A stretch of DNA of 64,000 nucleotides from a virus: positions 34,427-98,426 of IMG/VR virus record IMGVR_UViG_3300042521_002634, one strand, 5' to 3'. This document shows positions 12,177-46,181 of the stretch, in pieces. Position 1 is the stretch's first letter. Each line of letters opens with the position of its first letter. The position numbers and the translations under genes were made by a program. The notes under the pieces are model-generated. The model was not told the origin of the DNA. It did no database searches and was given only the letters and a program-made list of their open reading frames with translations.

Positions 12177-12528
12177 TGCACTATTGTATCATACTTAATT
12201 GTGTACATCGCTGCCTTGTTTGACGAACACGACAATACCTGCGGCGGAAAAATCACACCCTGCTTGCGCTGCTCTGCGTGCGTGCCGAAGGCACGCCGCG
12301 TCTTCTGCTAGTGTCATTCACCGCGGCGGAAGACTATGTACAAGGGGAAGTATAGTACCTTGCCATAATTGCCTTGGACGTGAGAGAGGGATATGGATAG
12401 AAATACAGAAAGTGTAAAGTGTCTCCAACTTTTTTAGAAAAATATTTTTTTCTTTGCGAAAAGTTGAGCGCGAGCGAAGAAAAAAGTTGCTCTACTTTTT
12501 TAGATTCCAAAGTTTTTATAATGATGAC

Positions 12529-16775: not shown

Positions 16776-16910
16776 AACGTCCTTCAGTCGGGCCAAGCGG
16801 GTTTGCTTGACAATTAAATTATATAAACTCTGGAAAATGCTCAACTAAACTCGAGTTGAGAAGACTGCTTGAAGAGCCGGGCCCCAACCGGCCCGGCTCC
16901 TCGAATTCAA

Positions 16911-17216: not shown

Positions 17217-17323
17217 TTTTGTCCTTTCGTCGTTGTCAGGCTTGTTTGCTTGACAAGATAAATATATCATCTCTGGAACTCGAGTGGCCGGCCAGTTTGT
17301 GGCCGGCCGGCCGAACCTCGAGT

Positions 17324-17692
17324 TTAGCGGTTTGGGTAGAAGGGAATGTTAAGCAGTTTGCAGTGAGCGTCGATGAAGTCGATGATTGGTTTGCCGAATG
17401 CCGATATGCAGTCGTCGAAGTCGTCGCAGAAGTCTGAACCGGCGTAGTCGTAGCGTACGCCGTAGTTAAGTGTTTCGTCGGCTGAAAAGCCGATATTGAC
17501 GAAGTCGAAGACGTTGCCGTTGTAGTCGTGGCTGAAGTTGTTGAAAAACTCAGTGGTTTCGGTTGGGTCGTCGATGCCGGACTTAGTTGTAAGTAAGTAG
17601 GCGAGTGACAGTTTTGCGTCGAAGCTGACAGTTTCGTTGTCGATGTCGGTAAGCGTGATTTCGTAGGTGTCAGTTTTGAGTTGCGTTTTCAT
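17324..17692 (-). CDS. Acidic Asp/Asn/Phe-rich cassette protein
   Basis: Own promoter motif and AAAGGAC RBS. Confidence 0.75.
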   Translation of the reverse strand: MKTQLKTDTYEITLTDIDNETVSFDAKLSLAYLLTTKSGIDDPTETTEFFNNFSHDYNGNVFDFVNIGFSADETLNYGVRYDYAGSDFCDDFDDCISAFGKPIIDFIDAHCKLLNIPFYPNR

Positions 17693-17747
17693 TTTTGTCC
17701 TTTTGTCGTTGTTGGTATATACATTATACAAACTCTGGAACTCGAGT

Positions 17748-19354: not shown

Positions 19355-19416
19355 ATTTCGTCCTTTCGTAAGTGCCAACCATTTTGGCTGACAGAATTAT
19401 ATTAACTTCTCTGGAA

Positions 19417-19593
19417 TCAATGCCCGTAGCGTCGAAGCAGCTCGCACGCGATTGTCATCGGATACGATGACGCGACATTGCGAACTACCTCCGCAACGAT
19501 GTCGTCTTCGCCCAGATCCGGGTAATCGGCTTTCGCGTCTTGGATACCGATCTGTACCTCGACGAGAGCGTCATTTAACGTTCTCATGCTCAT
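19417..19593 (-). CDS. Cassette hypothetical protein (58 aa)
   Basis: MSMRTLNDALVEVQIGIQDAKADYPDL...; promoter 19615 and RBS; stop abuts the next promoter; not in track. Confidence 0.65.
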   Translation of the reverse strand: MSMRTLNDALVEVQIGIQDAKADYPDLGEDDIVAEVVRNVASSYPMTIACELLRRYGH

Positions 19594-19729
19594 CCTTTCG
19601 TCGTTGATAGATACAATGTATCATCTCCGGAACTGAAGTCGTAGGCCGGCTTAGTCAGAGTCCGCTCTAGTTCCGGAGATGATATATTTATCTCATCAGC
19701 ACAACGCTGGTAACGACGAAAGGACGAAA

Positions 19730-19978
19730 ATGAAAAAATGGTGCTTGCTTAAAGGAAGCGACATCGGCCCAATGGGACGAGGTCAGAATGGCAAGAAGAA
19801 AGTCTACGAGGTAATCGCAGATGGTTCAGTGTTGCGTTGCTCGTGGGGCATGGCAGAGAAGATCAACCGCCAGTCAAGCGTGCAAGTGTATCACTCAGGC
19901 CAAGCAGCAATGTCAGCCGCGTACGAAAAAGTGTACGCAAAGCGAGACAAGGGATACGCTCTAGCTTACGAAGTTTAA
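19730..19978 (+). CDS. Stand-alone WGR-domain protein
   Basis: KVYEV...LRCSWG...A....EKV..KRDKGY; promoter 19672 and RBS. Confidence 0.7.
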   Translation: MKKWCLLKGSDIGPMGRGQNGKKKVYEVIADGSVLRCSWGMAEKINRQSSVQVYHSGQAAMSAAYEKVYAKRDKGYALAYEV

Positions 19979-19997
19979 TCTTCGTAAATGGTAAGTC

Positions 19998-20022
19998 AGC
20001 CAGCCGGCCAAACCGGCTGGCT
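19998..20022. terminator. GC hairpin AGCCAGCCGG-CCAAA-CCGGCTGGCT
   Basis: Perfect 10-bp stem after the WGR gene; near-copy at 20322-20346. Confidence 0.6.
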
Positions 20023-20055
20023 AACTCCAGTTTCCAGAGTTGTTATATTGATTAC

Positions 20056-20307
20056 ATGACAAACATACAAACACACCAAATAATCAACATCCATCACGAA
20101 CCTGAATACTTGACTACTGTCACGTTTAACTACTACGGCGACCCGTACGCCATATCGCACATCGGCAACCTAAACGGCATCGACAGCTACTGCGTAAACA
20201 GCGTCAACAGCAACGAGTACTACGAATACCTCGCTGCCAACTGCGACTTCATCGTCGACTTGCTCAAAAATAATCCGCGCATCGACGCCGCGCTTCACAG
20301 CAAATAA
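20056..20307 (+). CDS. Asn/Tyr/Ile-rich cassette protein, probably leaderless
   Basis: ATG 6 nt after the -10 of motif 20033. Confidence 0.7.
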   Translation: MTNIQTHQIINIHHEPEYLTTVTFNYYGDPYAISHIGNLNGIDSYCVNSVNSNEYYEYLAANCDFIVDLLKNNPRIDAALHSK

Positions 20308-20353
20308 CAAATAAATAATCGGCCAGCCGACTAAAAACCGGCTGGCTATTTAT

Positions 20354-20804: not shown

Positions 20805-21044
20805 TTAACGAGTTCGGCGTGCAGTGCGCCGCAGCCTACGCCGCTCATTACCAGTAAGTCCGCCCCAGACGCCGATCTGTTCGTTGTCTAGCGCGTAGTC
20901 CAAACACTCCTGCCTGACTAAGCACCCAGCGCAGACGACCTTGGCCTGCCGCGTGACTATACGCGATTTCTCGTTATGGAACAAATCTCCTTTGCCGGCG
21001 CACGCCGCATGCTGCATCCAATGCTGCTGCTTAGCGATGCGCAT
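20805..21044 (-). CDS. whiB: WhiB-family transcription factor
   Basis: W...AAC...AKVVCAGCLVRQECLDYAL...GVWGG. Confidence 0.92.
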   Translation of the reverse strand: MRIAKQQHWMQHAACAGKGDLFHNEKSRIVTRQAKVVCAGCLVRQECLDYALDNEQIGVWGGLTGNERRRLRRTARRTR

Positions 21045-21617: not shown

Positions 21618-22862
21618 CTATCCAACTGCAATCGAGCTGTACGGCGCTCCACCTACAAGTACGATTACATTATACCCACTTAGGTTTCTAGTCGTCGTGA
21701 ACTTTACCGCACCGCTGGCTGAAGAAGTCTTCGTCCAAGTAAAGGATGACTTAGCTTTTGCTAGTGCGCTAATTTGCATCTTTGTTCCGGGGAGCGAAGA
21801 TTCAACTGCGATCTCGTAGCCTTCTGAAGTTTTCGTCACCGCAACTGTTACAGAAGTAGACGACGGCACTTCAGTCCCATTGTCGATCTCTTTGACAATT
21901 GTTGTTGAAGTTGTTGTTGTCACCGCAGGCGCAGAACTAGACCCAGACAATGGAGCGTACAGCAACTTGTTTGGAGAACCCACGCCAGCGTCAGTAATCG
22001 CATCGCTGGTGGCAGAACTCACAATCAACGAAGTAACGTCAGTTACAGACAGCGCTGGACTATTCTGTAGCGCTAACGCCGCGACGCCGGTGACGTGTGG
22101 CGCCGCGTGTGACGTACCTTTAAGAGTTTTAGACGCTGTTGGCGACGTAGCCCACGCTGACAGCACGTTTGCGCCTGGAGCAAATATGTCAACACACTTG
22201 CCGTAGTTAGCCCATGACCACCTAGCGTCGTTTTCATCACTCGCCGCAACGTTGATCGCGCTTGGAGTAGACCCCGGCGAGTAACTGCACGCGTCCTTAT
22301 TGTTGTTGCCGGCTGCAGTAACTACTACAATTCCATCTGCAATCGCGCGATCGACCGCAGCATTTACTTTTGATGACAAGTTTCCACTCATGCTGATATT
22401 CATGACTGCAGGCTCGCCAGTCTTGTGATCTGCTACTGCCCAGTCGATGCCCGCGATCATGTCAGACGTCCAACCATTACCACTACAGTCTGTGACCCGC
22501 ACAGGGACAAGAGTCACCTTTGGCGCTACGCCGTAGGTTGACCCGCCGACTACGCCGGCGACATGAGTGCCATGTCCGTAGCAGTCCTCAGTTCCTCGCC
22601 CATCAAGAATTTTAGTGAAACCCGCACGAATTCTGCCTGTAAACTCTTCATGCGACGAGAGTATGCCACTGTCAACTACGTAGACAGTGACGCCTTGACC
22701 ATTAAGCGCCAGCGAAACGTCTTTGTTCAACGGCAGTGAGCGTTGATCAATGCGATCAATATTCCACTGAGCTGTAGCAACGGCTTCCGCATTTCCATAG
22801 ATTAAGGCGATTACGACGGCAACTATCGCCGCCACAATTGCAAACTTATTTTTTACTTTCAT
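21618..22862 (-). CDS. Secreted S8 subtilisin-family serine protease (aqualysin/proteinase K-like)
   Basis: YVVDSG, GHGTHVAG, AAGN, GTSHAAPHVTG; N-terminal TM. Confidence 0.92.
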   Translation of the reverse strand: MKVKNKFAIVAAIVAVVIALIYGNAEAVATAQWNIDRIDQRSLPLNKDVSLALNGQGVTVYVVDSGILSSHEEFTGRIRAGFTKILDGRGTEDCYGHGTHVAGVVGGSTYGVAPKVTLVPVRVTDCSGNGWTSDMIAGIDWAVADHKTGEPAVMNISMSGNLSSKVNAAVDRAIADGIVVVTAAGNNNKDACSYSPGSTPSAINVAASDENDARWSWANYGKCVDIFAPGANVLSAWATSPTASKTLKGTSHAAPHVTGVAALALQNSPALSVTDVTSLIVSSATSDAITDAGVGSPNKLLYAPLSGSSSAPAVTTTTSTTIVKEIDNGTEVPSSTSVTVAVTKTSEGYEIAVESSLPGTKMQISALAKAKSSFTWTKTSSASGAVKFTTTRNLSGYNVIVLVGGAPYSSIAVG

Positions 22863-23238: not shown

Positions 23239-23829
23239 CTAAACCGGCCCGCTCTGAACTTGTATGTTGAACGGCGCGCTCGTGTTTGCGTCCAACCTTG
23301 CCGCAACAGTAAGCGCAGTCTTGACCGCAGCCTTAGCTTTATCTATGTTGTCCGCACCTTCTGGAAGAAGAGCGTACAGCACACCGAGCGCGTATGGACT
23401 TCCAGTGCCAAGGCCGTAGATGCCACTTGTGTCTTTAACCCACGAGTAGTCTTCTCCGATGACGTACACCGCACCATTGACTGCAGCCAGTATTATTGAT
23501 CCAGACTCATCTGAATGATCTTTGTTGGGTGAAGGCGCTGTGTAACCTTGCTCGTTAAAGCACGCACGCAGTGACGGAACAAAGTCGCTCGTTATGAATT
23601 TGTCAAGTCGGGTGCCGACAAAATTCTTAGCGTCAGGCGGACGGAATGCGTATTGCAAGATGTTGATCGCGCGCACGTCGCCTGCAGCGCCAAGCAGATA
23701 CGCACGATTCCGCGCGACCTTGGCTGAACCTTTAGGTAGAACGTAGACGCGCCCATCTTCTTCAGTGACACGCGAATCAGACCCAACTACAGTCCAGCCA
23801 CTGCCAGTTACTGCAACTATCGTTGTCAT
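23239..23829 (-). CDS. HslV/proteasome-beta-like Ntn peptidase
   Basis: MTTIVAV...GSDSRVT...K...GTGSPYALG. Confidence 0.85.
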   Translation of the reverse strand: MTTIVAVTGSGWTVVGSDSRVTEEDGRVYVLPKGSAKVARNRAYLLGAAGDVRAINILQYAFRPPDAKNFVGTRLDKFITSDFVPSLRACFNEQGYTAPSPNKDHSDESGSIILAAVNGAVYVIGEDYSWVKDTSGIYGLGTGSPYALGVLYALLPEGADNIDKAKAAVKTALTVAARLDANTSAPFNIQVQSGPV

Positions 23830-25293: not shown

Positions 25294-25431
25294 TTAGAAG
25301 TCCCACTTCTTTACGCGGCAAGCCTGACGATTCGCAAGCTTGCGCTTGTTAGGAATCTGCTGAGCTCTGAGGATATTTCTATCCGCAAAGGCTTGGCGAC
25401 TTTCCGCGTTCCATTTGGTTGATGTTTTCAT
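25294..25431 (-). CDS. Small basic cassette protein, probably leaderless
   Basis: ATG 6 nt after the -10 of motif 25438. Confidence 0.65.
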   Translation of the reverse strand: MKTSTKWNAESRQAFADRNILRAQQIPNKRKLANRQACRVKKWDF

Positions 25432-25744
25432 ATATTCATTATACAATCTCTGGAAACTCGAGTTAAAGACTGAAGATCGAAGTTTGTGAATCAAAGAACT
25501 CCATGTCGTCCTCTTGACCCAACCACTCAGCGAGAGTTTCCGAGTCGGATTCGTTGAAAACGATGTCGATATTTGGCCAGCCGGTGGATTCGGTGGCAAT
25601 GTCGACGACGCGGACAAACGAGTCCGGAATAGTGTTTTTTAGGTCGATAATGGCGTCGAGAAGGTTTTCGGTGGCCAAGTCGACGTTGATGATTTTTGTG
25701 TGGTTGTTCATATATTCATTATACAATCTCTGGAAACTCAAGTT
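25427..25744. repeat. 33-bp perfect direct repeat (38 bp with 1 mismatch) flanking one gene
   Basis: ttcatatattcattatacaatctctggaaactc at 25427-25459 and 25707-25739. Confidence 0.9.
25463..25711 (-). CDS. Acidic cassette protein, probably leaderless
   Basis: ATG 6 nt after the -10 of motif 25718. Confidence 0.7.
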   Translation of the reverse strand: MNNHTKIINVDLATENLLDAIIDLKNTIPDSFVRVVDIATESTGWPNIDIVFNESDSETLAEWLGQEDDMEFFDSQTSIFSL

Positions 25745-26046
25745 TAGTAGGGACTTTGGCCGTTGTCGAAGCGGCTGTCAGTCGCGATGAGGGCCAGAAG
25801 GACATCGTAGTTGAAAACTTGTTCGATTTCAGATTCGTCGAAGAGTGGGGCCTCGAACGAGAACGTGGCGGCGTCGTTGCCGAGATTAATGAATGGCTGA
25901 TTGTCGACGAAGTGAATTGTGAATATCGGGTCGAGGCCAAGTTCGTTGAAGTCGATTGTTGCGTTGTTGCAGTTAGCGTAGAAGTAGTCGATGTCGAAGT
26001 CGATTGTAACTGCGTTGTCTGTTTTTGTGATCGTGTAGGTTTTCAT
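25744..26046 (-). CDS. Acidic Asp/Asn/Phe-rich cassette protein
   Basis: Promoter 26077 and AAAGGA RBS. Confidence 0.7.
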   Translation of the reverse strand: MKTYTITKTDNAVTIDFDIDYFYANCNNATIDFNELGLDPIFTIHFVDNQPFINLGNDAATFSFEAPLFDESEIEQVFNYDVLLALIATDSRFDNGQSPY

Positions 26047-26106
26047 GATTTTTCCTTTGTCGTTGTGTATATAAACATTATACAAACTCTGGAAACTCGA
26101 GTTGCT

Positions 26107-26313
26107 CTATCCGAACATCTCGGCCCAGCACTCTGGGTGCGTGCCTGAAACAAGCTGCTCACGAAGACCTCTGCTTAGATCAGGGAACGCGTTCTGTATC
26201 AACGCGCCCGCACTGCGTCGTGCAAGGCCTGAGTTCGGTACTTCTACCTCACCCTTGTATCCGCAATGAACGCACCGCGGCGTCTCGACTACTGAGTAAA
26301 ACTCTGTCCGCAT
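26107..26313 (-). CDS. Small zinc-binding phage protein
   Basis: CVHCG...IQNAFPDLS...REQLVSGTHPECW. Confidence 0.7.
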   Translation of the reverse strand: MRTEFYSVVETPRCVHCGYKGEVEVPNSGLARRSAGALIQNAFPDLSRGLREQLVSGTHPECWAEMFG

Positions 26314-26323
26314 GCTCTGCTCC

Positions 26324-26509
26324 TTAATCCCACAGAGGTTCGCGCGGTGTGAGTGCCGCAATGATGAGACATACGCCCGAGATGCCGAGCTTGAACTGTG
26401 TCGACGTTCTCACGCCGAGGTGCTCTACACCAAGCAACCGCTCGAGTTCATTGATTGCGAGTTCGAATTCATTCTCTGTGTTTACTGCCATGTTGTTCTC
26501 CTGTGTCAT
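26324..26509 (-). CDS. Small cassette protein (start uncertain)
   Basis: Promoter 26522. Confidence 0.5.
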   Translation of the reverse strand: MTQENNMAVNTENEFELAINELERLLGVEHLGVRTSTQFKLGISGVCLIIAALTPREPLWD

Positions 26510-26538
26510 GTTGATAGTTTAATTATATAAACTCTGGA

Positions 26539-26832
26539 CTAGTACTCTGACATCATTCTGTCGTAGCGAATCTCTTCCGCAACCGCGTCGTCGTCGTACT
26601 TCTCGAGAGCGACCATCGCCTCATCGACGTTGGTGAACTCTTGTTCGTGAATGCAATCTACGTCTGCCGGCTCCCAGTACGTCGCTGGAATTGTCTTCCA
26701 AACTGTCCCGACGATGAGTCCGCTAGTCTGCACTTGCACTTCAAGCCCGAACAAGTCGCCTATCGCGAAGTACTCCGCAATGACGCCTTCAAACGGCTCT
26801 CTTGTTCCCCATTGTTTCTTCGTGTATTTCAT
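26539..26832 (-). CDS. Acidic cassette protein
   Basis: Promoter 26860 and RBS. Confidence 0.7.
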   Translation of the reverse strand: MKYTKKQWGTREPFEGVIAEYFAIGDLFGLEVQVQTSGLIVGTVWKTIPATYWEPADVDCIHEQEFTNVDEAMVALEKYDDDAVAEEIRYDRMMSEY

Positions 26833-26884
26833 ATTGCGTCCTTTCGTTGTTATATATGCATTATATAAACTCTGGAACTCGAGT

Positions 26885-27031
26885 TTACTTCTTATTTTGC
26901 TTTTCGATGCACCTGACTAAGTCTTCAGCTATTTCTTTCTTTCTGAAGTACCTAACTCCAGACGGAGTTATTACGTTCCAAGTGTGAATGCTTCTCTCAA
27001 TACGTACCTGTTGTTTCGTCGTTGTAGTCAT
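26885..27031 (-). CDS. Small basic cassette protein (48 aa), probably leaderless
   Basis: MTTTTKQQVRIERSIHTWNV...; exactly fills the space between two promoter copies; not in track. Confidence 0.65.
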   Translation of the reverse strand: MTTTTKQQVRIERSIHTWNVITPSGVRYFRKKEIAEDLVRCIEKQNKK

Positions 27032-27062
27032 GCAACCATTATATAAACTCTGGAACTCGAGT

Positions 27063-27233
27063 CTATATCGAGATCGGGCAACTCAGGTTCGCATCGTTTG
27101 AGTGGAATCGAAGTTCCTGCTTGCAAACTGCGCAGATTTCGTCTAAGTCTAGACCAACAACGCTGTCGTTGTAGTCACGCATAGCTCGTCGTTTACCTGC
27201 TCGATAAGCGATGTACAGTCCTAAGATTCCCAT
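27063..27233 (-). CDS. Small membrane-anchored zinc-binding protein, probably leaderless
   Basis: ATG 6 nt after the -10 of motif 27240; CAVC...H...C. Confidence 0.6.
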   Translation of the reverse strand: MGILGLYIAYRAGKRRAMRDYNDSVVGLDLDEICAVCKQELRFHSNDANLSCPISI

Positions 27234-27266
27234 AACTACATTATAACAGCTCTGGATGTCCAAAGT

Positions 27267-27354
27267 GGCAGCGGTCTTGCCTTGCAGCCTCCCGCCAGGC
27301 CGATGCTTGAAATTGGCAGCGGTCTTGCCTCTGCAGCCTTCCACCAGGCCGATG
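27267..27354. repeat. Tandem ~48-bp repeat carrying bipartite motif GGCAGCGGTCT-N18/19-CAGGCCG
   Basis: Copies at 27267 and 27315; dispersed copies at 33909, 35028, 35340. Confidence 0.85.
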
Positions 27355-27888: not shown

Positions 27889-29682
27889 TTAGCGTTGAAC
27901 TGACTCCAGCGCTCTTGCTGCTGCAGATCCTATCTGCGTCGCTACGTCTGCGGCACTTGTAATCTTCTCGACGAGCTGCACTGACTTGGTGCTCGAGCTA
28001 TTGAGAAGTCGACGAGCGTCGTCACTCGCTAACGGAGACACAACCATGACTCCGACACCAAGTCTTTCGCACTCATCTAACCAGCGTCGTGCGTTCTTCG
28101 TCTCTTCGTGAGTGTAACACAGATCGCTAACGATGACGAGCAATCGCGCGCCTACGCCATTGAGCAAGTTCAACGAACCATCAAGCGCTTTGAATGCTTT
28201 CTCAAAGCGTTCAGTTCCATCTGGCGCCGAGTACACTGTCACCTCTGACAAGTGCTGCCCGGGCTTCAATGTTGGGAACACCCCAGTGCCGTAGTAAACC
28301 ATCGCCGCACGGCCTTGAACTCTCCGCACCGCTTCGCTCATGACCCACGCTGTCACTGCCATCGGCTCCATCGCCGAGGACATTGAACCGCTGATGTCGA
28401 CCATTACGCCGACAGTGAGAGTTGGGTCGTCAGTGTGCGTGCGCTTAGTCCGGCGCCATGGCTCTACTTGCGTCATGATGCCCTTCGACTTAAACGCTGC
28501 TCCCTGCACCATAGCGCGCGTGCGCAACCGGCCAGGAGGAACGATCGACTTAATCTCAGTCTCGTCACGCTCACGATACTTAGCTTTCTCAAGCATCTGC
28601 GCTACCTTGACTGCTGCTGCTCGTTCATCACCACGTGGAGCGCGCTTTTCAACTAGACGACTGTTTGTCTCAGAAGAAGATTCTGGCCCAGTGCCTCTAC
28701 CGAATACTTTGTCCGCAGCGTCCTTGTGTTCTTTCTGCTGCTTCGCTGCACCGCTTCGACTTTTAACTTCACGCTCCCATTCTTCTTGCGTCTGTTGATC
28801 TGCTGCATCGGCTGAACCACCGACAGCTGCGTTGCCAGCTGCTTCCTCGAGTGCTTCCTCGAGTGCTTCCCCGAACTCGCCAAGCTCGCCTAGCCCTGAT
28901 TCACCTTGACCAGGCTCTGGCTCACCAGCTTCAGCTGCTGCCTCTTTAACTAATCTTGCCCACTCACGGGCGACAGGGTAGAGACCTTCAATTGAACTGT
29001 GTGAAGTGTAGTCCTGAGCTTGCAGCCATAGGTTGCGAAGCTTAGTGAAGAGCTCTACACCAAGCTTATTGATTAGAACTTCCTCTACAGTCTCGATGTC
29101 TGACAGCTCGAGTGAACCCGCATCTACGCGTGCTGACGTGAGTGCCGCCATGTGCGCTGCTGTCCACATGCTGCTGGTGTCTACACCGGTGACATTGAGG
29201 TCAGCCATCACTATCTCGAGCGCGCAAGCGCGGAGAAACCCGGAGTTACCTGGCATCAAGGTGACGCCTAAGTTCTCGATACGACCTTCTTCAAGAAGCA
29301 CGAGTGCTTTGAACTCAAGAGACTCGAGGTCCTTCTGCGCTTTAATGAGATCCCAGCGAGAGAACCGAGCGTGGAGAGCTTCATGGAATATGACACCAGA
29401 AGCTTTAGGCCAGTCGAACTGAACGCTGCGTTGCGTCATGTCGCCGATCGACGCCGGCGTTATTGACTTGCCAAACGCTCTCGTCACATCTACTTCGATC
29501 TCTGCAAGCATTGGGTTGTAGCACGCTGGTGCCACGCCGCCACCGGCGCCTGGGCCGACGTACGCGATAACATCTGCGCGTTCTGCCCAGATATTTGTAA
29601 TCTGGCCGATCTGCACGCCTACGCCTAACCACTCGGGTGGCGTAGCCTCAGCTCGAGAGCTATTAATCTTAAAATGTGTCAT
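27889..29682 (-). CDS. vWA-domain protein with N-terminal HExxH metallopeptidase-like domain (CobT-like MoxR partner)
   Basis: HEALH...LEEGRIE; MIDAS motif DISGSM, DGTE, VSD. Confidence 0.85.
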   Translation of the reverse strand: MTHFKINSSRAEATPPEWLGVGVQIGQITNIWAERADVIAYVGPGAGGGVAPACYNPMLAEIEVDVTRAFGKSITPASIGDMTQRSVQFDWPKASGVIFHEALHARFSRWDLIKAQKDLESLEFKALVLLEEGRIENLGVTLMPGNSGFLRACALEIVMADLNVTGVDTSSMWTAAHMAALTSARVDAGSLELSDIETVEEVLINKLGVELFTKLRNLWLQAQDYTSHSSIEGLYPVAREWARLVKEAAAEAGEPEPGQGESGLGELGEFGEALEEALEEAAGNAAVGGSADAADQQTQEEWEREVKSRSGAAKQQKEHKDAADKVFGRGTGPESSSETNSRLVEKRAPRGDERAAAVKVAQMLEKAKYRERDETEIKSIVPPGRLRTRAMVQGAAFKSKGIMTQVEPWRRTKRTHTDDPTLTVGVMVDISGSMSSAMEPMAVTAWVMSEAVRRVQGRAAMVYYGTGVFPTLKPGQHLSEVTVYSAPDGTERFEKAFKALDGSLNLLNGVGARLLVIVSDLCYTHEETKNARRWLDECERLGVGVMVVSPLASDDARRLLNSSSTKSVQLVEKITSAADVATQIGSAAARALESVQR

Positions 29683-29800
29683 TTGTCCTTGTCCTTTGTT
29701 GTCCTTGTACTATCAATTATATAAACTCTGGAAAGAGAGGTTAGCCTCCCGCACACCTACGGGAGACCAACCAACGAAGACTGAGCGCGAAAGGCAGCGC

Positions 29801-30793
29801 TTAGATCTTCGCCGGGCGACACTCTTCTCCGAATACTCGGGTGAAGACGTCAGCCACGACTGGGCGATCCATCTCGGGAGCGGCAGCTAGCAAGTTCGCG
29901 ATAGCGAATGATGTGCCGAACTCCTTTGCGAGATCGCGGAACGCTAGAAGCTCACGCATCTGAGGAGCCCATGAGACTTCAGACGACTGCTGCTTCTTAC
30001 TTAAATTTTGCGCCGCAGTGACGATTGGCACCGGAGCTCCTAACTTACGAGCGAGCGACCAATCAGTCGTCATCTCTGCTTGCACAAGGAATCGTGACAA
30101 GAGAGCTTCAGACAATCGCACGCCTGGAGCGTTCGGGTTAGTCGCTGCGATTACGTAGAAACCTGGAGCAGCTTTCACTGTCCCACGCTCTGGGTTAGCA
30201 GTCACAGTGTATTCACGACGGCCATCCATGAGACCGTAGACGATACTGAGCACCTTCGGGTCGATAAGACCTACCTCATCGATGAGCAGCACTCCGCCGC
30301 ACTCCGCTGCTTTAAGCAGTGGGCCGTCCTCCCAGACAAAGCCACCACTTGGTGTCTGCACATATCCGCCGACTAAGTCAGCAACTTCTGTGTCGCCTGA
30401 GCCGAGCACTGTGAACAAGCCACCGGACTCGCCAGTGAACGCAGCTTCAACAACAGCAGTCTTACCGCAACCTGGTGCGCCGTACAAAAGTACGTATGCT
30501 GACATGTCTCTCGACTTGCGAAGCACCATGACATCGTCATGCTCACCCCACTTGCGTGAGTAGTAGTTCTCGCCATTTGGTCGAGTGTAACTCTTCTCGC
30601 CTACAAGCGCGTCTGCAGATATCATTGGAACTTTCTTCTTCGGAGCGATAGTCTTAGCCTTGACGCGTCCTGCGTCGAGAACCATTGACTTCATCTTATC
30701 CGCGAACTCTGAGTGCAGAGTCTGCCCCGCTGCTGCAAGCAGCACTTTGTCTAGCCCCGGGTGGAGCTTGTCGTATTCTGTACTTGATAACAT
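29801..30793 (-). CDS. MoxR/CobS-like AAA+ ATPase
   Basis: GAPGCGKT, WEDGPL, LLIDE, ATNP, EALLSRF. Confidence 0.9.
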   Translation of the reverse strand: MLSSTEYDKLHPGLDKVLLAAAGQTLHSEFADKMKSMVLDAGRVKAKTIAPKKKVPMISADALVGEKSYTRPNGENYYSRKWGEHDDVMVLRKSRDMSAYVLLYGAPGCGKTAVVEAAFTGESGGLFTVLGSGDTEVADLVGGYVQTPSGGFVWEDGPLLKAAECGGVLLIDEVGLIDPKVLSIVYGLMDGRREYTVTANPERGTVKAAPGFYVIAATNPNAPGVRLSEALLSRFLVQAEMTTDWSLARKLGAPVPIVTAAQNLSKKQQSSEVSWAPQMRELLAFRDLAKEFGTSFAIANLLAAAPEMDRPVVADVFTRVFGEECRPAKI

Positions 30794-30865
30794 TTTGTGT
30801 CCTTTCGTTGTTTGTCGTTTGGTGTGTTACTTACTTATTCATTATTATTATAAAGACTCTGGAAG

Positions 30866-31312
30866 CTAACTCTGCTTCCAGTAATCTTCAAAACTAAGAA
30901 ACTTGCGAGCTTTGTTGACTCGGCCAAGAGCCTTGTACGCGAGCTTGCCTCTGGCCGCGTCATCGACATCCTTCTGCGTGAGCTCGACGACGATTGGCTC
31001 TTTGTACAGAGCCCAGCCTCGAGTTGAAAGCTGCTGCATTGTCGAGTCTGTCAACGACGTCAGCCAAGTCGATGCCTGAACTTCAGCACTGCCGGGTCCT
31101 GGCATAACAGGGCTTGGCGTCGGGCCTGTGTAGCATCGCCACTGTCTGCGTGCTACCGCTGGCGAGATCTGTCGACGGAATACTGTAAACGGCATCATAA
31201 GCGATGAAGACGACCTAAGCGGCGGAAACATCATCATTTGATACGACGTTTTGTCGTGCCTAAATTCTAAGTAGAGCATGTGCCCTACAACTTCTGTTGA
31301 ACTGTCATTCAT
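30866..31312 (-). CDS. Cassette hypothetical protein
   Basis: Promoter 31342 and RBS. Confidence 0.7.
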   Translation of the reverse strand: MNDSSTEVVGHMLYLEFRHDKTSYQMMMFPPLRSSSSLMMPFTVFRRQISPAVARRQWRCYTGPTPSPVMPGPGSAEVQASTWLTSLTDSTMQQLSTRGWALYKEPIVVELTQKDVDDAARGKLAYKALGRVNKARKFLSFEDYWKQS

Positions 31313-31428
31313 TATTTTGTCCTTTCGTTTGGTGTGAATACATTATATAAACTCTGGAAAGCTGCCGGCTGAGGAGGGTTTCAGCCGACAGCAGTTCTGT
31401 GCTCAACTTCCGACCGGGAGTTGATTCT

Positions 31429-31806: not shown

Positions 31807-31974
31807 TGCTTTGTCCTTTCGTCATTGCCAAGCGTTATTGCTTGACGAATACATTATAACAACTCTGGAATTACAGGCCTAGGCTGTCTTACCGCGTCCT
31901 CACGCATTGGCAAGACAGTCTAGGCCAGACCGAACGTCAGCCTGCATTACTATGCACGGCATCAGTCTGGGCTC

Positions 31975-33791: not shown

Positions 33792-34334
33792 CTAAGCTAG
33801 GCGTTTAATTTTTGCCAGACGGTCTTCAAGTTCGGCTACCCGGGCCTGAAGTTTCGCTGTTCGCTCGCTCACAAGAAGATCGATGAGCTGATCTGCAGTG
33901 TGCTTTTTGGCAGCGGTCTTGCCTTTTCGAGTGCTAGCAGGCCGACGTCCAGTTTTAAGGACGACGCCCGGTACAGCTTCAGCGACGGTGCGTGGAGGCA
34001 CAACGTTGCCTTTAGCCCAGTACAGCGACGCTTGATAGCCTTTAGGCGCTTTCATTGATGAGCGAATGAGACGTTCATCCATGGTCTCGGTACGCTTGCT
34101 TACCAGGCCGGCGGCTTCCAAACGAATCAACGCGTTTCTCACTGACACCGGATCGGCTTTTCGTCCGGTCATCTGGCTAATTGCTTGCTGAAGCTCAAGA
34201 ACGCTGAGTGGTTGAGTAGATTCAAGCAACGTAAGTTGAACGTTGTCTTTCAGTGTTTGGAACATCATTATTTTTTCTTCTATTACTTGATTGTACTTGC
34301 GCATCGTTTTCTCCTGTGTCTGTTGTATGTTCAT
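33792..34334 (-). CDS. Winged-HTH DNA-binding protein with coiled-coil tail (start may be 34304)
   Basis: PLSVLEL...SVRNALIRLEAAGLV; promoter 34345. Confidence 0.65.
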   Translation of the reverse strand: MNIQQTQEKTMRKYNQVIEEKIMMFQTLKDNVQLTLLESTQPLSVLELQQAISQMTGRKADPVSVRNALIRLEAAGLVSKRTETMDERLIRSSMKAPKGYQASLYWAKGNVVPPRTVAEAVPGVVLKTGRRPASTRKGKTAAKKHTADQLIDLLVSERTAKLQARVAELEDRLAKIKRLA

Positions 34335-37349: not shown

Positions 37350-37424
37350 TGGAGCCCTCGGTCAGGATTGAACTGACGACCTACCGCTTACAAGGCGGTT
37401 GCTCTACCACTGAGCTACAAGGGC
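37350..37424 (-). tRNA. trnT: tRNA-Thr(UGU) with encoded CCA
   Basis: GCCCTTG-TA-GCTC-AGTGGTA-GAGC-A-ACCGC-CTTGTAA-GCGGT-AGGTC-GTCAG-TTCAATC-CTGAC-CGAGGGC-T-CCA. Confidence 0.95.
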
Positions 37425-39938: not shown

Positions 39939-42900
39939 GTGCGAAAAGCTCGATCTGTCTGGGGGAGAGAGCAAAAAGCATTTAGTAAAATAATTAGAAG
40001 CGGAGCGTGGATTCTCGTACCCGCTGCACTGATCGCGCTTGTCATGCCGCCCGTGACGTCAGTTCAGGCCGCCACTATCTCGAATATCTCGAACACAGGT
40101 TTTGAGGATGGAACTTTCACTGGTTGGAACAAAGGTTCTCAGACAGGAACGTTAGGCAACACGATAACTGGCAACGGTAGTGGCGTAACTATATTTACTG
40201 GTTCTCGTACTTTTACTCACGGCTCTAGAGGTGCTGTTGGAAGTCCGTCTAGTCCGTATTACGCACCAGCAGTTGCTTCTGGCAGTTGGACATTCTCCCC
40301 TAATAACGGAACAAATGCTGTTCTGCTTCAACCCAAAGGTGAACAGACTTTTGACCAAGCGGCAAGTGCTTTGAGCCTTTCGGCTGGCTCGGTAACAGAA
40401 ATCAAAAACATGCTTACATCGCAGGCGCAAGCATCAGGCAACGGTCAAGGTACACCGACAGACGCAGCATGGATAACTCGTGAAGTGGAACTTACAGCAG
40501 GAACGACATATACAATGGCGTGGAACTATGTCGGAACTGACTATGTTCCTTTTAACGATGGCTCTATCACATCACTCATTCCTGTGACTGTTACTGGCAC
40601 TCCAGTAGTAACGGTAAACAACTATGTCAAGCAATACGCACTTCTTGGATTCACCAATCCTGGCACTGGCGACTACTCAACAAATTCTTATGGCTCTACG
40701 GGTTGGCAAACTTCAACATATCAAGTCTCTATAAGCGGTACTTATAAACTTGGTTTTGCTTCGTTTAACCTTGACGATTCAGGCTTACCTCCAGCGCTGA
40801 TGGTTGACAGCGAGGCTGGCTCCACTGAGCGTTGCATTTCTGGAACCTGTACATCATTTGGTGGAGTTGCATCAAATAATGAAACTGCTCCAACGGTTGC
40901 GCCTACAACTACAACTACTGTTGCCCAAACCACTACTACCAGTAGTACAACTACCACAAGTACTACGACGACAACTACTACAACTACTACGATTCCTGCA
41001 CCAACATCGCTCGAAGTTACGAGTCTCTTAGATGATGGTTCAAGCGGAACTCTTCGCTGGGCAATCACCCAAGCGAATGCAACCGCAGGTGGAATCTACG
41101 ACGCAATCACTTTTGATATTGATGGCACAATCACCTTGACCAGTGCGCTCCCTCAAGTTACACAAAACCTCACAGTCACAGGAAACGGAAGAACACAGAC
41201 AATAATTGATGGAAACAATCTCTATCGCCCATTCAATATTGCAAGCACCAAGTCACTGACCATTTCGGACATGACTTTAAAGCAAGGACAAGCAACTAAC
41301 GGCGGTCTGATACTTAATGGTTCGGGCACTTTGTCTGCCACCAACATTCGCTTCACTGGAATGAGTGGAGGCTCTGCGGTATTTAACAATAACAATGGCT
41401 CTGTCTCAACCCTAACGAATACAACATTTGACTATCTATATATTGGTATTGCTGGAGACTATGGTTCAACGCCATCGGCTTTAAGTCAAACGGATTCTGA
41501 TTACACAAATCGCACATACGTTTATGATTCGGTTTTTTCTAATAACACCTACGGAATATCTGGACAAAGATTTTTCAAGATAAACAACACGCAATTTTCC
41601 AACAATACACAGGCTGGCGCTTCGTTGAATGGGCTCAACCGTCAACAGGTAACCAACTCGACATTTACTTCAAACGGTATTGGCTTGTATTTCTCGTCTT
41701 GGATTCCAACAAGTTGGGCTGTTGGCGCTGGCAACCAAACAGTTTCAGGTAGTACATTCAACGGCAACACCACTGCTATTCAATTTGCAAACTCTTGGAA
41801 CAACGGGTCAACCAGTTACAACGGAGCAAGCGCAAACTCGTTCTCAACAGCCAGTGGAAATACATTTGGCGTTACTGCGCTAAACACAAACAATTTCTCT
41901 GGCTCTGGGTATGTGGAGTCCAACAACACAATCACTGCGGCTTACCTGAATCCAGTTACGAACTTGACGGCTGTTGCAAACGCAGACGGAAGTGTTGACC
42001 TTGATTGGGATGCATCGGCGGCAAGCAATTGCGTCATCTACGGTTACTCAGTTAGTTTCTACGACCTCACCGTAATTGGTGGAGCAACATCAGGTGGCTG
42101 GGGCGTTTGGACTAATCAAGGAACCAACTACTCGTTGAGCACTGGGATGTTTTCTGGCAGTAACCCTGTCACGACAGGATATGGACCAGTTCGTTTTGGT
42201 ATCAAAGCAATGACGGGCGGGTGTGTTGGGGTTGGAACTGGTAGTTGCACCTATGGCCCTGAAGTAACTATTGATGCAACAGTTATTGACCCGACTCCCG
42301 TAACAACTACTACCACTAGTACAACTACAACAGTTCCCTATCAGCCCGTTCCAGGTCCCAATAATCCTGGTCAATCCGATAACGGAGGCGACTCTTCGCC
42401 AACTGATACAACAGAACCACCATACATAATCCCATTACCTGAAACAGAATCCACAACGGTGACGCTTCCAACAGAAACATTACCTGGAACCGAATTGCCA
42501 ACAGTAACCATCCCAGAAGAGTGGGAATCAACAGAAACAACTTTACTACCAATTGAAGTAGACCCAACAGAAACTGAAACGGTAGTAGTAATAATTCCAC
42601 CAGATGATTATACCGTCACAGACATAGAAGACGACGAGCCAATCACAACGGTCATATTGGACAATATTCTTGAAAATACGTTCACTACTGATATTGAGGC
42701 TGACGAGGTTGGCGCTGTTCTTGACACGCTCCTTGGCGCAGAACTTACCGACGCTCAATTTGACAATGTCCTAGAAGCCGTGTTTACCGAAGATGTTTCG
42801 GCAGATGTATTCACTGAAGCACTGACGACGATGCTGGATGCAGACATCACCAGCGAACAGTTGACAGTAGTTTTGGATTCAGCATTCTCGGAGGATACTT

Positions 42901-43868
42901 CTGCTGAGAATATGGTGTCGGCTTTGGTGTCAATCTTTGATGGTCCGCTTAGTTCTGGTGACCTAGACAAAGTTATGGACGCAGTATTTGACGAGGACAT
43001 TTCGGCTGCAGACACTATGACCGTACTTGACGACTTGCTTGAAACAAATCTCAGTCAAGCAGAAACAGAAGCAATCTTTGACAGCGTGTTTGACGATGAC
43101 CTTTCCGATGCAGAAACCATTGACCTTATCGTTGATGTATTGAAAGACGGTCTTACCGCAGACAATTTGGGCGCCGCACTTGATGCAGTCTTTGACGAAG
43201 AAGTAAGCACCGAGGTTTTGATTGAAACCTTTACCGCAGTCTTGGGTAATGAACTTAACGAAGAGTCGCTCGGCGTCATCGTGGACGTCTTGGAATCGGA
43301 CACGATTACGGGCGAGCAAGTTGGACAAGTTGTCACATTGGTAATTCAACAGGAAGGTGGTATTCCTAGTGACCAAGCAACGGAACTGGCAACGAGCTCC
43401 AAAGTGCTTGAAAGCATTGACGGCGAACAAGCGACAGAAGTGTTTGCCGCAATCGTTGTTGCCGAGGTCTCGCAAGAAGCGGGTACTGAAATTGCCGAGG
43501 CACTTGCGGGAGCTGTAACAGAAGTAAAAGAAGCATTCCAAGAAGAAATCAATGTGTTTGCTGGAGTATTTGACACGTATGTCCCAGTTGACTCTAGCGT
43601 TGATGTTGGAACTCGTCGTTCTCTTGTCGCTGCAGCTGCAGCCGTATCAACCATGGCCGTGGCTGGCACCGCGGCTGCGGGAGCCCCTAGCGCGCCTAGC
43701 GGCGGCAGTTCGGGCAGTGGCAGTGGCAGCGTTAGTGACAGCAACAACGCAGCACGAAAAGAGAATGAAGCCGAGCAAGAAGCTGCAGGAGAGATTGCAG
43801 GTGGAGAAGAAGACGAAGATGACAAAGAGTTTACCCGTAACAGTATCTACAAATATATCGAGGAGTAA
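39939..43868 (+). CDS. Large secreted/surface protein (carbohydrate-binding-like, beta-helix, FN3-like, Thr linkers, acidic helical repeats)
   Basis: Signal/TM; poly-Thr; VTSLLDDGSSGTLRWAI; STFxxN repeats; PVTNLTAV...LDW; VLDAVFDED repeats. Confidence 0.75.
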   Translation: MRKARSVWGREQKAFSKIIRSGAWILVPAALIALVMPPVTSVQAATISNISNTGFEDGTFTGWNKGSQTGTLGNTITGNGSGVTIFTGSRTFTHGSRGAVGSPSSPYYAPAVASGSWTFSPNNGTNAVLLQPKGEQTFDQAASALSLSAGSVTEIKNMLTSQAQASGNGQGTPTDAAWITREVELTAGTTYTMAWNYVGTDYVPFNDGSITSLIPVTVTGTPVVTVNNYVKQYALLGFTNPGTGDYSTNSYGSTGWQTSTYQVSISGTYKLGFASFNLDDSGLPPALMVDSEAGSTERCISGTCTSFGGVASNNETAPTVAPTTTTTVAQTTTTSSTTTTSTTTTTTTTTTIPAPTSLEVTSLLDDGSSGTLRWAITQANATAGGIYDAITFDIDGTITLTSALPQVTQNLTVTGNGRTQTIIDGNNLYRPFNIASTKSLTISDMTLKQGQATNGGLILNGSGTLSATNIRFTGMSGGSAVFNNNNGSVSTLTNTTFDYLYIGIAGDYGSTPSALSQTDSDYTNRTYVYDSVFSNNTYGISGQRFFKINNTQFSNNTQAGASLNGLNRQQVTNSTFTSNGIGLYFSSWIPTSWAVGAGNQTVSGSTFNGNTTAIQFANSWNNGSTSYNGASANSFSTASGNTFGVTALNTNNFSGSGYVESNNTITAAYLNPVTNLTAVANADGSVDLDWDASAASNCVIYGYSVSFYDLTVIGGATSGGWGVWTNQGTNYSLSTGMFSGSNPVTTGYGPVRFGIKAMTGGCVGVGTGSCTYGPEVTIDATVIDPTPVTTTTTSTTTTVPYQPVPGPNNPGQSDNGGDSSPTDTTEPPYIIPLPETESTTVTLPTETLPGTELPTVTIPEEWESTETTLLPIEVDPTETETVVVIIPPDDYTVTDIEDDEPITTVILDNILENTFTTDIEADEVGAVLDTLLGAELTDAQFDNVLEAVFTEDVSADVFTEALTTMLDADITSEQLTVVLDSAFSEDTSAENMVSALVSIFDGPLSSGDLDKVMDAVFDEDISAADTMTVLDDLLETNLSQAETEAIFDSVFDDDLSDAETIDLIVDVLKDGLTADNLGAALDAVFDEEVSTEVLIETFTAVLGNELNEESLGVIVDVLESDTITGEQVGQVVTLVIQQEGGIPSDQATELATSSKVLESIDGEQATEVFAAIVVAEVSQEAGTEIAEALAGAVTEVKEAFQEEINVFAGVFDTYVPVDSSVDVGTRRSLVAAAAAVSTMAVAGTAAAGAPSAPSGGSSGSGSGSVSDSNNAARKENEAEQEAAGEIAGGEEDEDDKEFTRNSIYKYIEE

Positions 43869-45439: not shown

Positions 45440-45834
45440 TGAACGCAGAAACTTACAGAATAGATCTTTCGCATGTCATAGACAGAATGCATAAAGAATA
45501 TGGTAAAAAAATATTCTGTGGAGAGGGTTGGTATCAACTAATTTGGGACTTAGACTATCAGCTAGCTCTTATTGACCCAGACTATACTATCTTTCAAATT
45601 AAAGAAAAATTTGGAGAACTGCGCTTTTACTACAATTCAAAAGACATGCGCAAGTACTACATGATGAGCGAAATCATTGAAAAGTACGAAGCGATGTCAA
45701 CATCAGTATGCGAAGAAACAGGGCTTCCCGGCGAGTTAATGAAAAGCTCTAAAGGAACATATAAAACGTTAAACAGAGAAAACGCACCGAAAGATTACAA
45801 GCCGGTTCATAATTTGTACCATAGCTTAGACTAA
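45439..45834 (+). CDS. Conserved phage hypothetical protein
   Basis: GWYQLI...QIKEKFGELRFY...CEETG. Confidence 0.75.
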   Translation: MNAETYRIDLSHVIDRMHKEYGKKIFCGEGWYQLIWDLDYQLALIDPDYTIFQIKEKFGELRFYYNSKDMRKYYMMSEIIEKYEAMSTSVCEETGLPGELMKSSKGTYKTLNRENAPKDYKPVHNLYHSLD

Positions 45835-46181
45835 TTAGTTTGTCTTTGTAAAGTTCTGTGAAAACCGCGTAGTTTATGTTTCAGTGAAATGTCGTTGACG
45901 ATGTACCCTTTTCGCCATCTTTCAATTTCTAACTCATCTCCCCAGATGCCGTATTCGCTGTTTCTCCGAGCAAATTGTTTACATTCAATAGCGACGGGGC
46001 AAACTTTGCATATTGCTCTTGCCAACTCTTCGCGCCTTATTCGCGCGCTTTCTTGCTCGTTGTGCGGCTCGTAAAACAGATGAGTCATGCCTTTGCACTC
46101 AGCGTGTGTCATCCACTCGACGTCTTTGTCGAATGCTTTTTTGTATTTTCTATCTATTGATTCGCCAACGTGGCTTCCCAT
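45831..46181 (-). CDS. whiB: WhiB-family transcription factor
   Basis: WMTHAEC...AICKVCPVAIEC...GIWG. Confidence 0.9.
   Translation of the reverse strand: MGSHVGESIDRKYKKAFDKDVEWMTHAECKGMTHLFYEPHNEQESARIRREELARAICKVCPVAIECKQFARRNSEYGIWGDELEIERWRKGYIVNDISLKHKLRGFHRTLQRQTN

Follow-up and report, generated by a model that had tools for sequence, protein, structure and literature searches.

Repeated putative promoters as probable crossover points for the exchange of small genes in an uncultured actinobacterial phage

Small genes follow one another closely in a stretch of 64,000 nucleotides of viral DNA (the window), and the same short element stands before many of them. Is this element a site for a dedicated recombinase, as in integrons, or does it have another function and take part in gene exchange by its sequence identity? 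The window comprises bases 34427-98426 of the 98,426-bp IMG/VR virus record IMGVR_UViG_3300042521_002634, which is of the linear class and approximately 74% complete. A preliminary description of the region 25427-27065 had proposed an integron-like array, recombining at a promoter or at a CTCGAG core. According to our analysis, the repeated junction element is best explained as a promoter and not as a recombination site as such, and the repeats are probably phage promoters serving as short-homology crossover points, with about 30 copies standing before units of one or two genes.

The window codes for a terminase large subunit, a portal protein, a primase/helicase, a ribonucleotide reductase and tail fibre proteins. 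Since the portal protein matches those of Actinomycetia phage DSL-LC01 (72% identity) and of large Microbacterium phages (57-64%), the source is, judged by this similarity, an uncultured phage of a freshwater actinobacterium. A megablast search with 24-30 kb of the window against GenBank phages gave no match, and an exact 18-mer scan of IMG/VR returned five chance matches in AT-rich contigs and one true relative, L003, whose source metagenome is IMG 3300027804. Combined with contig record L088 of the JGI metagenome collection, from source metagenome Ga0181352, it constitutes relative B, which is approximately 89% identical to the window at 12170-36314.

The repeated element

On the coding strand the element has the form (A)CTCGAG-TT(T)CCAGAG-N4-TATAAT, with the core consensus TTCCAGAG-N4-TATAAT-G. 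When a weight matrix made from the copies of the element was run over the whole 98-kb record with a cut-off of 12 bits, 30 sites exceeded this value, compared with 0-2 in 20 shuffles. Weight-matrix and regular-expression scans place the array at 12507 to 34771, 27 of the copies being on the minus strand; the three plus-strand copies are at 12507, 19673 and 20034. All copies thus lie inside the window at 12.5-34.8 kb, and there are none elsewhere in the record. Each of the 30 is co-oriented with the open reading frame (ORF) downstream of it. The genes of the array are mainly small, and those of the region covered by the preliminary description are coded on the minus strand.

Information is found only in TTCCAGAG, in part of the N4 spacer, in TATAAT and in the G that follows. 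The eight positions upstream of TTCCAGAG carry approximately 0-0.4 bits; this is the site of CTCGAG in the six copies that it adjoins (17276, 17738, 25453, 26092, 26875 and 27053). In the record as a whole CTCGAG occurs 60 times, mainly within genes. Because of this low information content and genome-wide frequency, CTCGAG was rejected as a core site, and of the two sites of recombination proposed beforehand, the promoter and the CTCGAG core, only the promoter is retained, the core being absent from 24 of the 30 copies.

Stop codons adjoin the element in the way already described, as TAA-CTCGAGTTTCCAGAG ending at 25463, as TAA-ACTCGAGTTCCAGAG at 26885 and as TAG-ACTCGAGTTCCAGAG at 27063 and 17748. 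Single genes are indeed enclosed by perfect direct repeats, namely by one of 33 bp (25427-25459 and 25707-25739, spaced 280 bp apart) around a gene of 82 aa and by one of 26 bp (26859-26884 and 27037-27062, spaced 178 bp apart) around a gene of 48 aa. Likewise, the leaders before 31312, 32820 and 33466 proved to be near-identical over approximately 45 nt, and the palindrome ACTCGAGT is present in the sequence as it had been quoted.

We read the element as a putative phage promoter with a consensus -10 (TATAAT) and an unusual box at about -23 to -17. In at least six copies (e.g. 25453, 25733, 27053, 27255 and, on the plus strand, 20034 and 12507), an ATG sits exactly 6 nt past the -10, and leaderless transcripts would be expected on account of this spacing. 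Leaderless transcripts are common in Actinobacteria. The remaining copies are followed by a leader of 20-45 nt that ends in a ACGAAAGGA Shine-Dalgarno sequence before the ATG. There is zero information at -35, and a generic sigma-70 scan recovers just a few of the sites. The -10 is probably used by the host RNA polymerase with its primary sigma factor, and the box is probably read by a phage-specific or lineage-specific factor. A search of the record for a phage sigma factor by means of Sigma70_r2 gave no match. Within the array, on the minus strand, lies a gene for a WhiB-family regulator (20805-21044). WhiB-like proteins bind region 4 of sigma-A, which could bear on the missing -35, and the product of this gene is a possible partner of the host sigma-A at such promoters. 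A second WhiB-family gene is located outside the array at 45831-46181. A candidate winged-helix gene is found at 33792-34334.

Two further sequence features accompany some of the promoters, which are designated here by P and their position. A conserved inverted repeat (TTGTCAAGC ... GCTTGGC/GACAA) stands in the leader right after the -10 of several of them (16800-16825, 17240-17265, 31830-31855 and 19385-19405) and would act as an operator or, alternatively, form a 5' stem-loop. Two tandem copies of approximately 48 bp (27262-27354), placed between the end of a gene and P27255, contain a bipartite GC-rich motif (GGCAGCGGTCTTGCC ... TGCAGCC..CC.CCAGGCCGATG), possibly bound by a regulator or active as an RNA element.

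Rearrangements between relatives

Read at base level, the window and relative B differ by nine structural changes. At J1 (31342-31359, minus strand), which lies inside P31357, B has an extra 506-bp cassette with an ORF of 123 aa between two promoter copies, and the P31357 of the window is a hybrid of these two flanking copies. J2 concerns the P26875 cassette (minus strand), whose 97-aa gene is absent from B; B has a stretch of 529 bp here, carrying another gene and two other promoters. The P26537 and P26092 cassettes (J3, minus strand) stand in the opposite order in B, where the P26092 cassette is upstream of that of P26537, and this swap of neighbours (J2-J4) left no extra bases. In the P25733 cassette (J4, minus strand), the leaderless 82-aa gene of the window corresponds to a 45%-identical allele with a Shine-Dalgarno leader in B. 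J5 is an indel of 105 bp that ends 9 nt upstream of P21494. J6 (20023-20318, plus strand) is a cassette of 296 bp present only in the window, with promoter 20034 and a leaderless 83-aa gene (20056-20307), flanked by two copies of a terminator hairpin. J7 (19593-19606, minus strand) falls in the Shine-Dalgarno leader behind P19630, and B has an extra segment of 685 bp with two ORFs. At J8 (17285-17721, minus strand), a 122-aa gene (17324-17692) lies between P17738 and P17276; in its place, B has an unrelated cassette of 272 bp whose gene is leaderless and codes for 76 aa. The B-specific segments hold genes that are missing from the genome of the window. We also considered that the plus-strand cassette at 20034 is a cassette of B at another place and in another orientation, and rejected this, since the two encode unrelated proteins and match no further than the promoter and the first approximately 30 nt.

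Of the 14 breakpoints on the side of the window, 12 fall within a promoter or its leader; promoters and leaders together make up approximately 9% of the sequence (p = 2e-11). No breakpoint was found at the approximately 17 gene junctions without a promoter in the comparison of the window with B. The crossovers are bracketed within the box at J1 and J3, between the box and +1 at J2, in the leader at J7 and upstream of CTCGAG at J8. CTCGAG-extended promoters, which share up to approximately 26-33 identical bases, are enriched at the rearranged junctions (6/7 versus 5/23; Fisher p = 0.004), and these copies are either the substrates that exchange uses best or its most recent products. Because of this enrichment, the preliminary description can be said to have picked the most plastic subset of the promoters.

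The same pattern was observed beyond B. In seven related phage pairs with differing box variants, 71 of 86 homology ends are located within -15 to +60 of a promoter start, compared with 8.8% expected; relative to that start, the homology sets in again at -13 to 0 and breaks off at +16 to +61. Among 21 non-redundant relatives, many gene orders were found around a conserved core of three genes (30866-31312, 29801-30793, coding for an AAA ATPase, and 27889-29682 in window coordinates), with every match on the same strand. That self-contained units of promoter and gene are gained, lost, replaced and reordered had already been proposed, and the comparisons with B, with six further pairs and with the 21 relatives bear this out: neither content nor order is conserved, and the breakpoints lie in the repeated promoter.

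The box itself varies between phages. DSL-LC01 has approximately 20 copies of TTCTAAAG-N4-TATAAT in front of the small genes located before its terminase gene; promoters or repeats are not mentioned in the DSL-LC01 publication. Loci around the AAA ATPase gene in IMG/VR and JGI metagenomes exhibit the same layout with the variants TCTAGGG, TCTAAGG, ACTAAAG, TCTAAAG and TCTAAAA. The box is uniform within a genome and differs among L007 (DSL-LC01), L009, L013, L017, L018, L026, L030 and others; the variant of the window phage is TCCAGAG, and one sub-lineage has ACCTGA directly before TATAAT. Since the orthologous promoters of the three core genes bear each phage's own variant, the promoters of one genome evolve in concert, as would be expected from a recognition factor that co-evolves with them or from recombination that homogenises them. 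A more far-reaching idea, which we put forward with considerable doubt, is that the TCYRRRG box is the site of a co-evolving phage-specific factor, defines a class of -35-less actinobacterial promoters and sets recombination compatibility groups. If this were true, all of the approximately 30 promoters of a genome would change together (TCCAGAG, TCTAAAG, TCTAGGG etc.), phages with the same box would trade cassettes freely and divergence of the box would isolate lineages. The array would then be a dedicated system for the exchange of accessory genes, functionally parallel to integrons and built on promoters and annealing.

The rearranged region around J2-J4 illustrates how tightly promoters and genes are packed, all of them on the minus strand. 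P25453 (25438-25462) is composed of CTCGAG, TTTCCAGAG, ATTG and TATAAT; the stop codon of the upstream gene (25463-25465) adjoins it, and an ATG follows the -10 after 6 nt, so that the 45-aa gene that it would drive (25294-25431; 84% amino acid identity in B) is predicted to be leaderless. P25733 (25718-25742), a CTTGAG variant, lies within the 33-bp repeat that it has in common with P25453, and the two repeats enclose the leaderless 82-aa gene (25463-25711). P26092 (26077-26101) has CTCGAG and precedes a gene of 100 aa (25744-26046). P26537 (26522-26538) is without CTCGAG, and its first T is overlapped by the TAG of the upstream gene; its cassette (26107-26509) consists of two genes, 26324-26509 (61 aa, or 55 aa from the second ATG) and 26107-26313 (68 aa). 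P26875 (26860-26884), with ACTCGAG and located within the 26-bp repeat, precedes the 97-aa gene mentioned above (26539-26832). P27053 (27038-27062), also with ACTCGAG, belongs to the leaderless 48-aa gene (26885-27031) that the 26-bp repeats enclose, and P27255 (27240-27256) to a leaderless gene of 56 aa (27063-27233). The cassette proteins received zero Pfam or PHROG assignments. An all-against-all search of the proteins of the minus-strand array in the window revealed no paralogous cassette proteins, and recent tandem duplication of whole cassettes is thus not seen there.

Larger auxiliary genes are also preceded by promoters of the array. They code for a subtilase (S8) and an HslV-like peptidase (21618-22862 and 23239-23829) and, at 27889-30793, for the AAA ATPase, which is of the dynein type, followed by a protein of 597 aa without a family match. 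Among the PHROG matches of the ATPase is a porphyrin-biosynthesis family, and in the DSL-LC01 record the gene in the equivalent place is annotated as a cobalamin biosynthesis protein. The minus-strand array is interrupted by a plus-strand island (19650-20346) with the plus promoters 19673 and 20034, of which 19673 stands back to back with the minus promoter 19630; the island ends at a bidirectional terminator hairpin (20322-20346). It contains an 82-aa gene (19730-19978) that looks WGR-domain-like by eye and has no Pfam match. A second copy of the gene at 19730-19978, in forward orientation, occurs in relative B. One gene is present twice in B, with the copies facing opposite ways. Outside the array, a tRNA-Thr (TGT) gene is located on the minus strand at 37350-37424 and is 94% identical in relative L092.

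Route of exchange and rival explanations

The integrase that had not been seen in the window is not encoded in the rest of the 98-kb record either: Phage_integrase (PF00589) and Resolvase (PF00239) had no match there, and the controls matched. RecT, ERF, Rad52, RecA and YqaJ were also without a match in the record. The search for a recombinase or annealase that the preliminary description had called for was nevertheless successful for the latter, as three adjacent genes at record positions 1872-4153, outside the window (locus L170, 829-3110), form a recombination module: a PD-(D/E)XK exonuclease of 316 aa, a Sak4-like annealase of 252 aa (AAA_24, phrog_124) and a DUF669 protein of 181 aa resembling a single-strand-binding protein (SSB). 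Sak4 anneals single strands, an activity that its SSB stimulates (PMC5928155). Phage annealases bring about recombination between diverged sequences (PMC5499656, PMC3945230) and generate mosaicism (PMC2327257). Two giant ORFs, 664-8424 (2586 aa, minus strand, adjoining the portal gene) and 39939-43868 (1309 aa, plus strand), had no Pfam or PHROG match.

Nine junction elements, seven from the region of the preliminary description and two at 17.2-17.8 kb, were folded as single-stranded DNA. Their z-scores of -1.5 to +1.5 relative to shuffles revealed no attC-like hairpin, and attC-like folding was rejected; the only palindrome in the folded junctions is the 6-8 nt (A)CTCGAG(T). The gene exchange fits a homology-driven process and not site-specific cleavage, because the crossovers are variable, an attC-like fold and an integrase are absent, and a module of exonuclease, annealase and SSB-like protein is present.

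We propose that about 30 copies of TTCCAGAG-N4-TATAAT drive units, mostly without assigned function, in the 18-22 kb upstream of the terminase gene. Because the same 18-45 bp of promoter and leader front many genes in one orientation, this sequence could provide portable homology. If promoter copies recombined, whether inside a single genome or between relatives infecting the same cell, whole units of promoter and gene would be deleted, inserted, replaced or reordered and the genes left unbroken. The likely agent would be the phage module of exonuclease, Sak4-like annealase and SSB-like protein, or host recombination. The CTCGAG-extended copies would represent the sub-family with the longest shared sequence and mark the spots that were shuffled most recently.

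It could be argued that the repeats are only promoters, that illegitimate or ordinary recombination takes place anywhere, and that selection and the edges of alignments place the breakpoints at promoters. Since the intergenic space is almost entirely promoter and leader, with stop codons adjoining the element, it is difficult to tell an effect of the promoter from one of the gene boundary. Measured against a gene-boundary null, which uses rough gene calls, the excess is modest: 12 of 12 breakpoints fall at promoter-bearing starts when approximately 27 of 44 gene starts bear a promoter (p = 0.003). We nevertheless regard this explanation as unlikely, given the hybrid promoters with crossovers bracketed inside the TTCCAGAG box at J1 and J3, the swap of two neighbouring cassettes without extra bases and the complete lack of breakpoints at promoter-less gene junctions. 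In addition, the promoters with the longest shared sequence are enriched at the junctions, and six further phage pairs with other box variants exhibit the same pattern. It is far less probable still that a dedicated recombinase, unseen or encoded in the missing 26% of the genome, acts on a CTCGAG/TTCCAGAG core and produces cassette circles. The precise contact of stop codons with the element, the palindromic ACTCGAGT, the perfect direct repeats flanking single genes, the enrichment of CTCGAG promoters at rearranged junctions and the incompleteness of the record would all suit such an enzyme. However, no tyrosine or serine recombinase is found in the 98 kb, and CTCGAG, common inside genes, is absent from most copies as well as from the box variants of relatives that shuffle equally. 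Moreover, attC-like secondary structure is lacking, every cassette has its own promoter, and the crossover positions vary among the junctions. The rearrangements might finally be chimeric assemblies in which promoter repeats wrongly join strains or loci, as all sequences are metagenome contigs and, in mixed populations, an assembly graph built with small k can be misled by repeats of 26-45 bp. We give this explanation very little credence: L003 and L088, records from different collections, agree to 99.9% over 5.7 kb across J4-J6, several relatives besides B are found in identical form in two or three contig records each, typical reads and final k-mers exceed the repeats in length, and the rearranged segments carry genes wholly absent from the other genome.

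Several further points, in addition to the modest excess over the gene-boundary null, weigh against the interpretation of the repeats as promoters at which crossovers occur by short homology. Only 8-28 bp of the shared homology are identical, a very short length in the lower range for exchange driven by an annealase, and selection against broken genes would also move the surviving breakpoints to gene boundaries. The promoter activity and the start sites are deduced from sequence logic, and the absence of a -35 counts against them. As the record is only approximately 74% complete, a recombinase could lie in the missing part. The crossover points are bracketed and not pinned, B is the sole close relative that covers the window, and every genome compared is a metagenome assembly.

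Comparison with known systems

Like an integron, the array is one-directional, is composed of small, mostly single-gene units delimited by repeats, and varies in content and order among relatives. It has, however, none of the integron-defining features that were tested: there is no IntI-type integrase, the repeat is probably a promoter and not a folded attC site, each cassette has its own TTCCAGAG-N4-TATAAT copy in place of the shared Pc of integrons, and the crossover points are variable and not fixed in a conserved core. As a mechanism, the integron-like array of the preliminary description is therefore not upheld, given the missing recombinase, the missing attC-like fold, the separate promoters and the variable crossovers.

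Relaxed homologous recombination by phage annealases (Martinsohn et al. 2008, PMC2327257; De Paepe et al. 2014, PMC3945230; Sak4, PMC5928155) offers a closer parallel, in that a module of exonuclease, annealase and SSB-like protein is encoded, exchange takes place at short, imperfect homologies and the genomes are mosaic. While annealase mosaicism relies on occasional stretches of similarity between temperate phages and prophages, the homology here is a regularly repeated regulatory element that makes the whole region a deck of interchangeable units.

The closest likeness is to the promoter-early stem-loops (PeSLs) of T4-type phages, repeated cassettes of an early promoter and a stem-loop in hyperplastic regions, which mediate the insertion, deletion and replacement of ORFans and form mini-circles (Arbiol et al. 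2010, PMC2839356; Comeau et al. 2014, PMC4122927). In both systems, dozens of repeated promoter cassettes stand in a plastic region before small genes of no assigned function, and the element reaches from the stop codon of one gene as far as the Shine-Dalgarno sequence and the start of the gene after it. Both also have the ends of indels and replacements between close relatives in the repeats (here 12 of 14 against B and 71 of 86 over the seven pairs), and both point to homologous rather than site-specific recombination, with no integrase. The differences are equally clear. PeSLs belong to T4-like myoviruses, whereas the present array is from an actinobacterial phage of another lineage, with a host of another phylum, and it has neither a -35 nor an upstream AT-rich tract, with the TCYRRRG box 4 nt upstream of the -10 instead. 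Most copies are without a stem-loop, including all at the seven junctions of the region first described, and a terminator hairpin precedes only a few (29739-29772, 30859-30881 and upstream of 31357). Many units are predicted to be leaderless, and the box changes in concert between relatives, which points to a transcription factor or polymerase contact. For annotation and engineering, approximately 30 probable promoters per genome can now be listed, and the model provides a concrete, testable account of how the many small genes without known function turn over in large actinophages. Promoter-mediated modular shuffling, until now documented in T4-type phages of Gram-negative hosts, would thus also occur in a widespread lineage of freshwater actinobacterial phages, with a regulatory element quite different from the T4 type: without a -35, with a box beside the -10 and with many leaderless genes.

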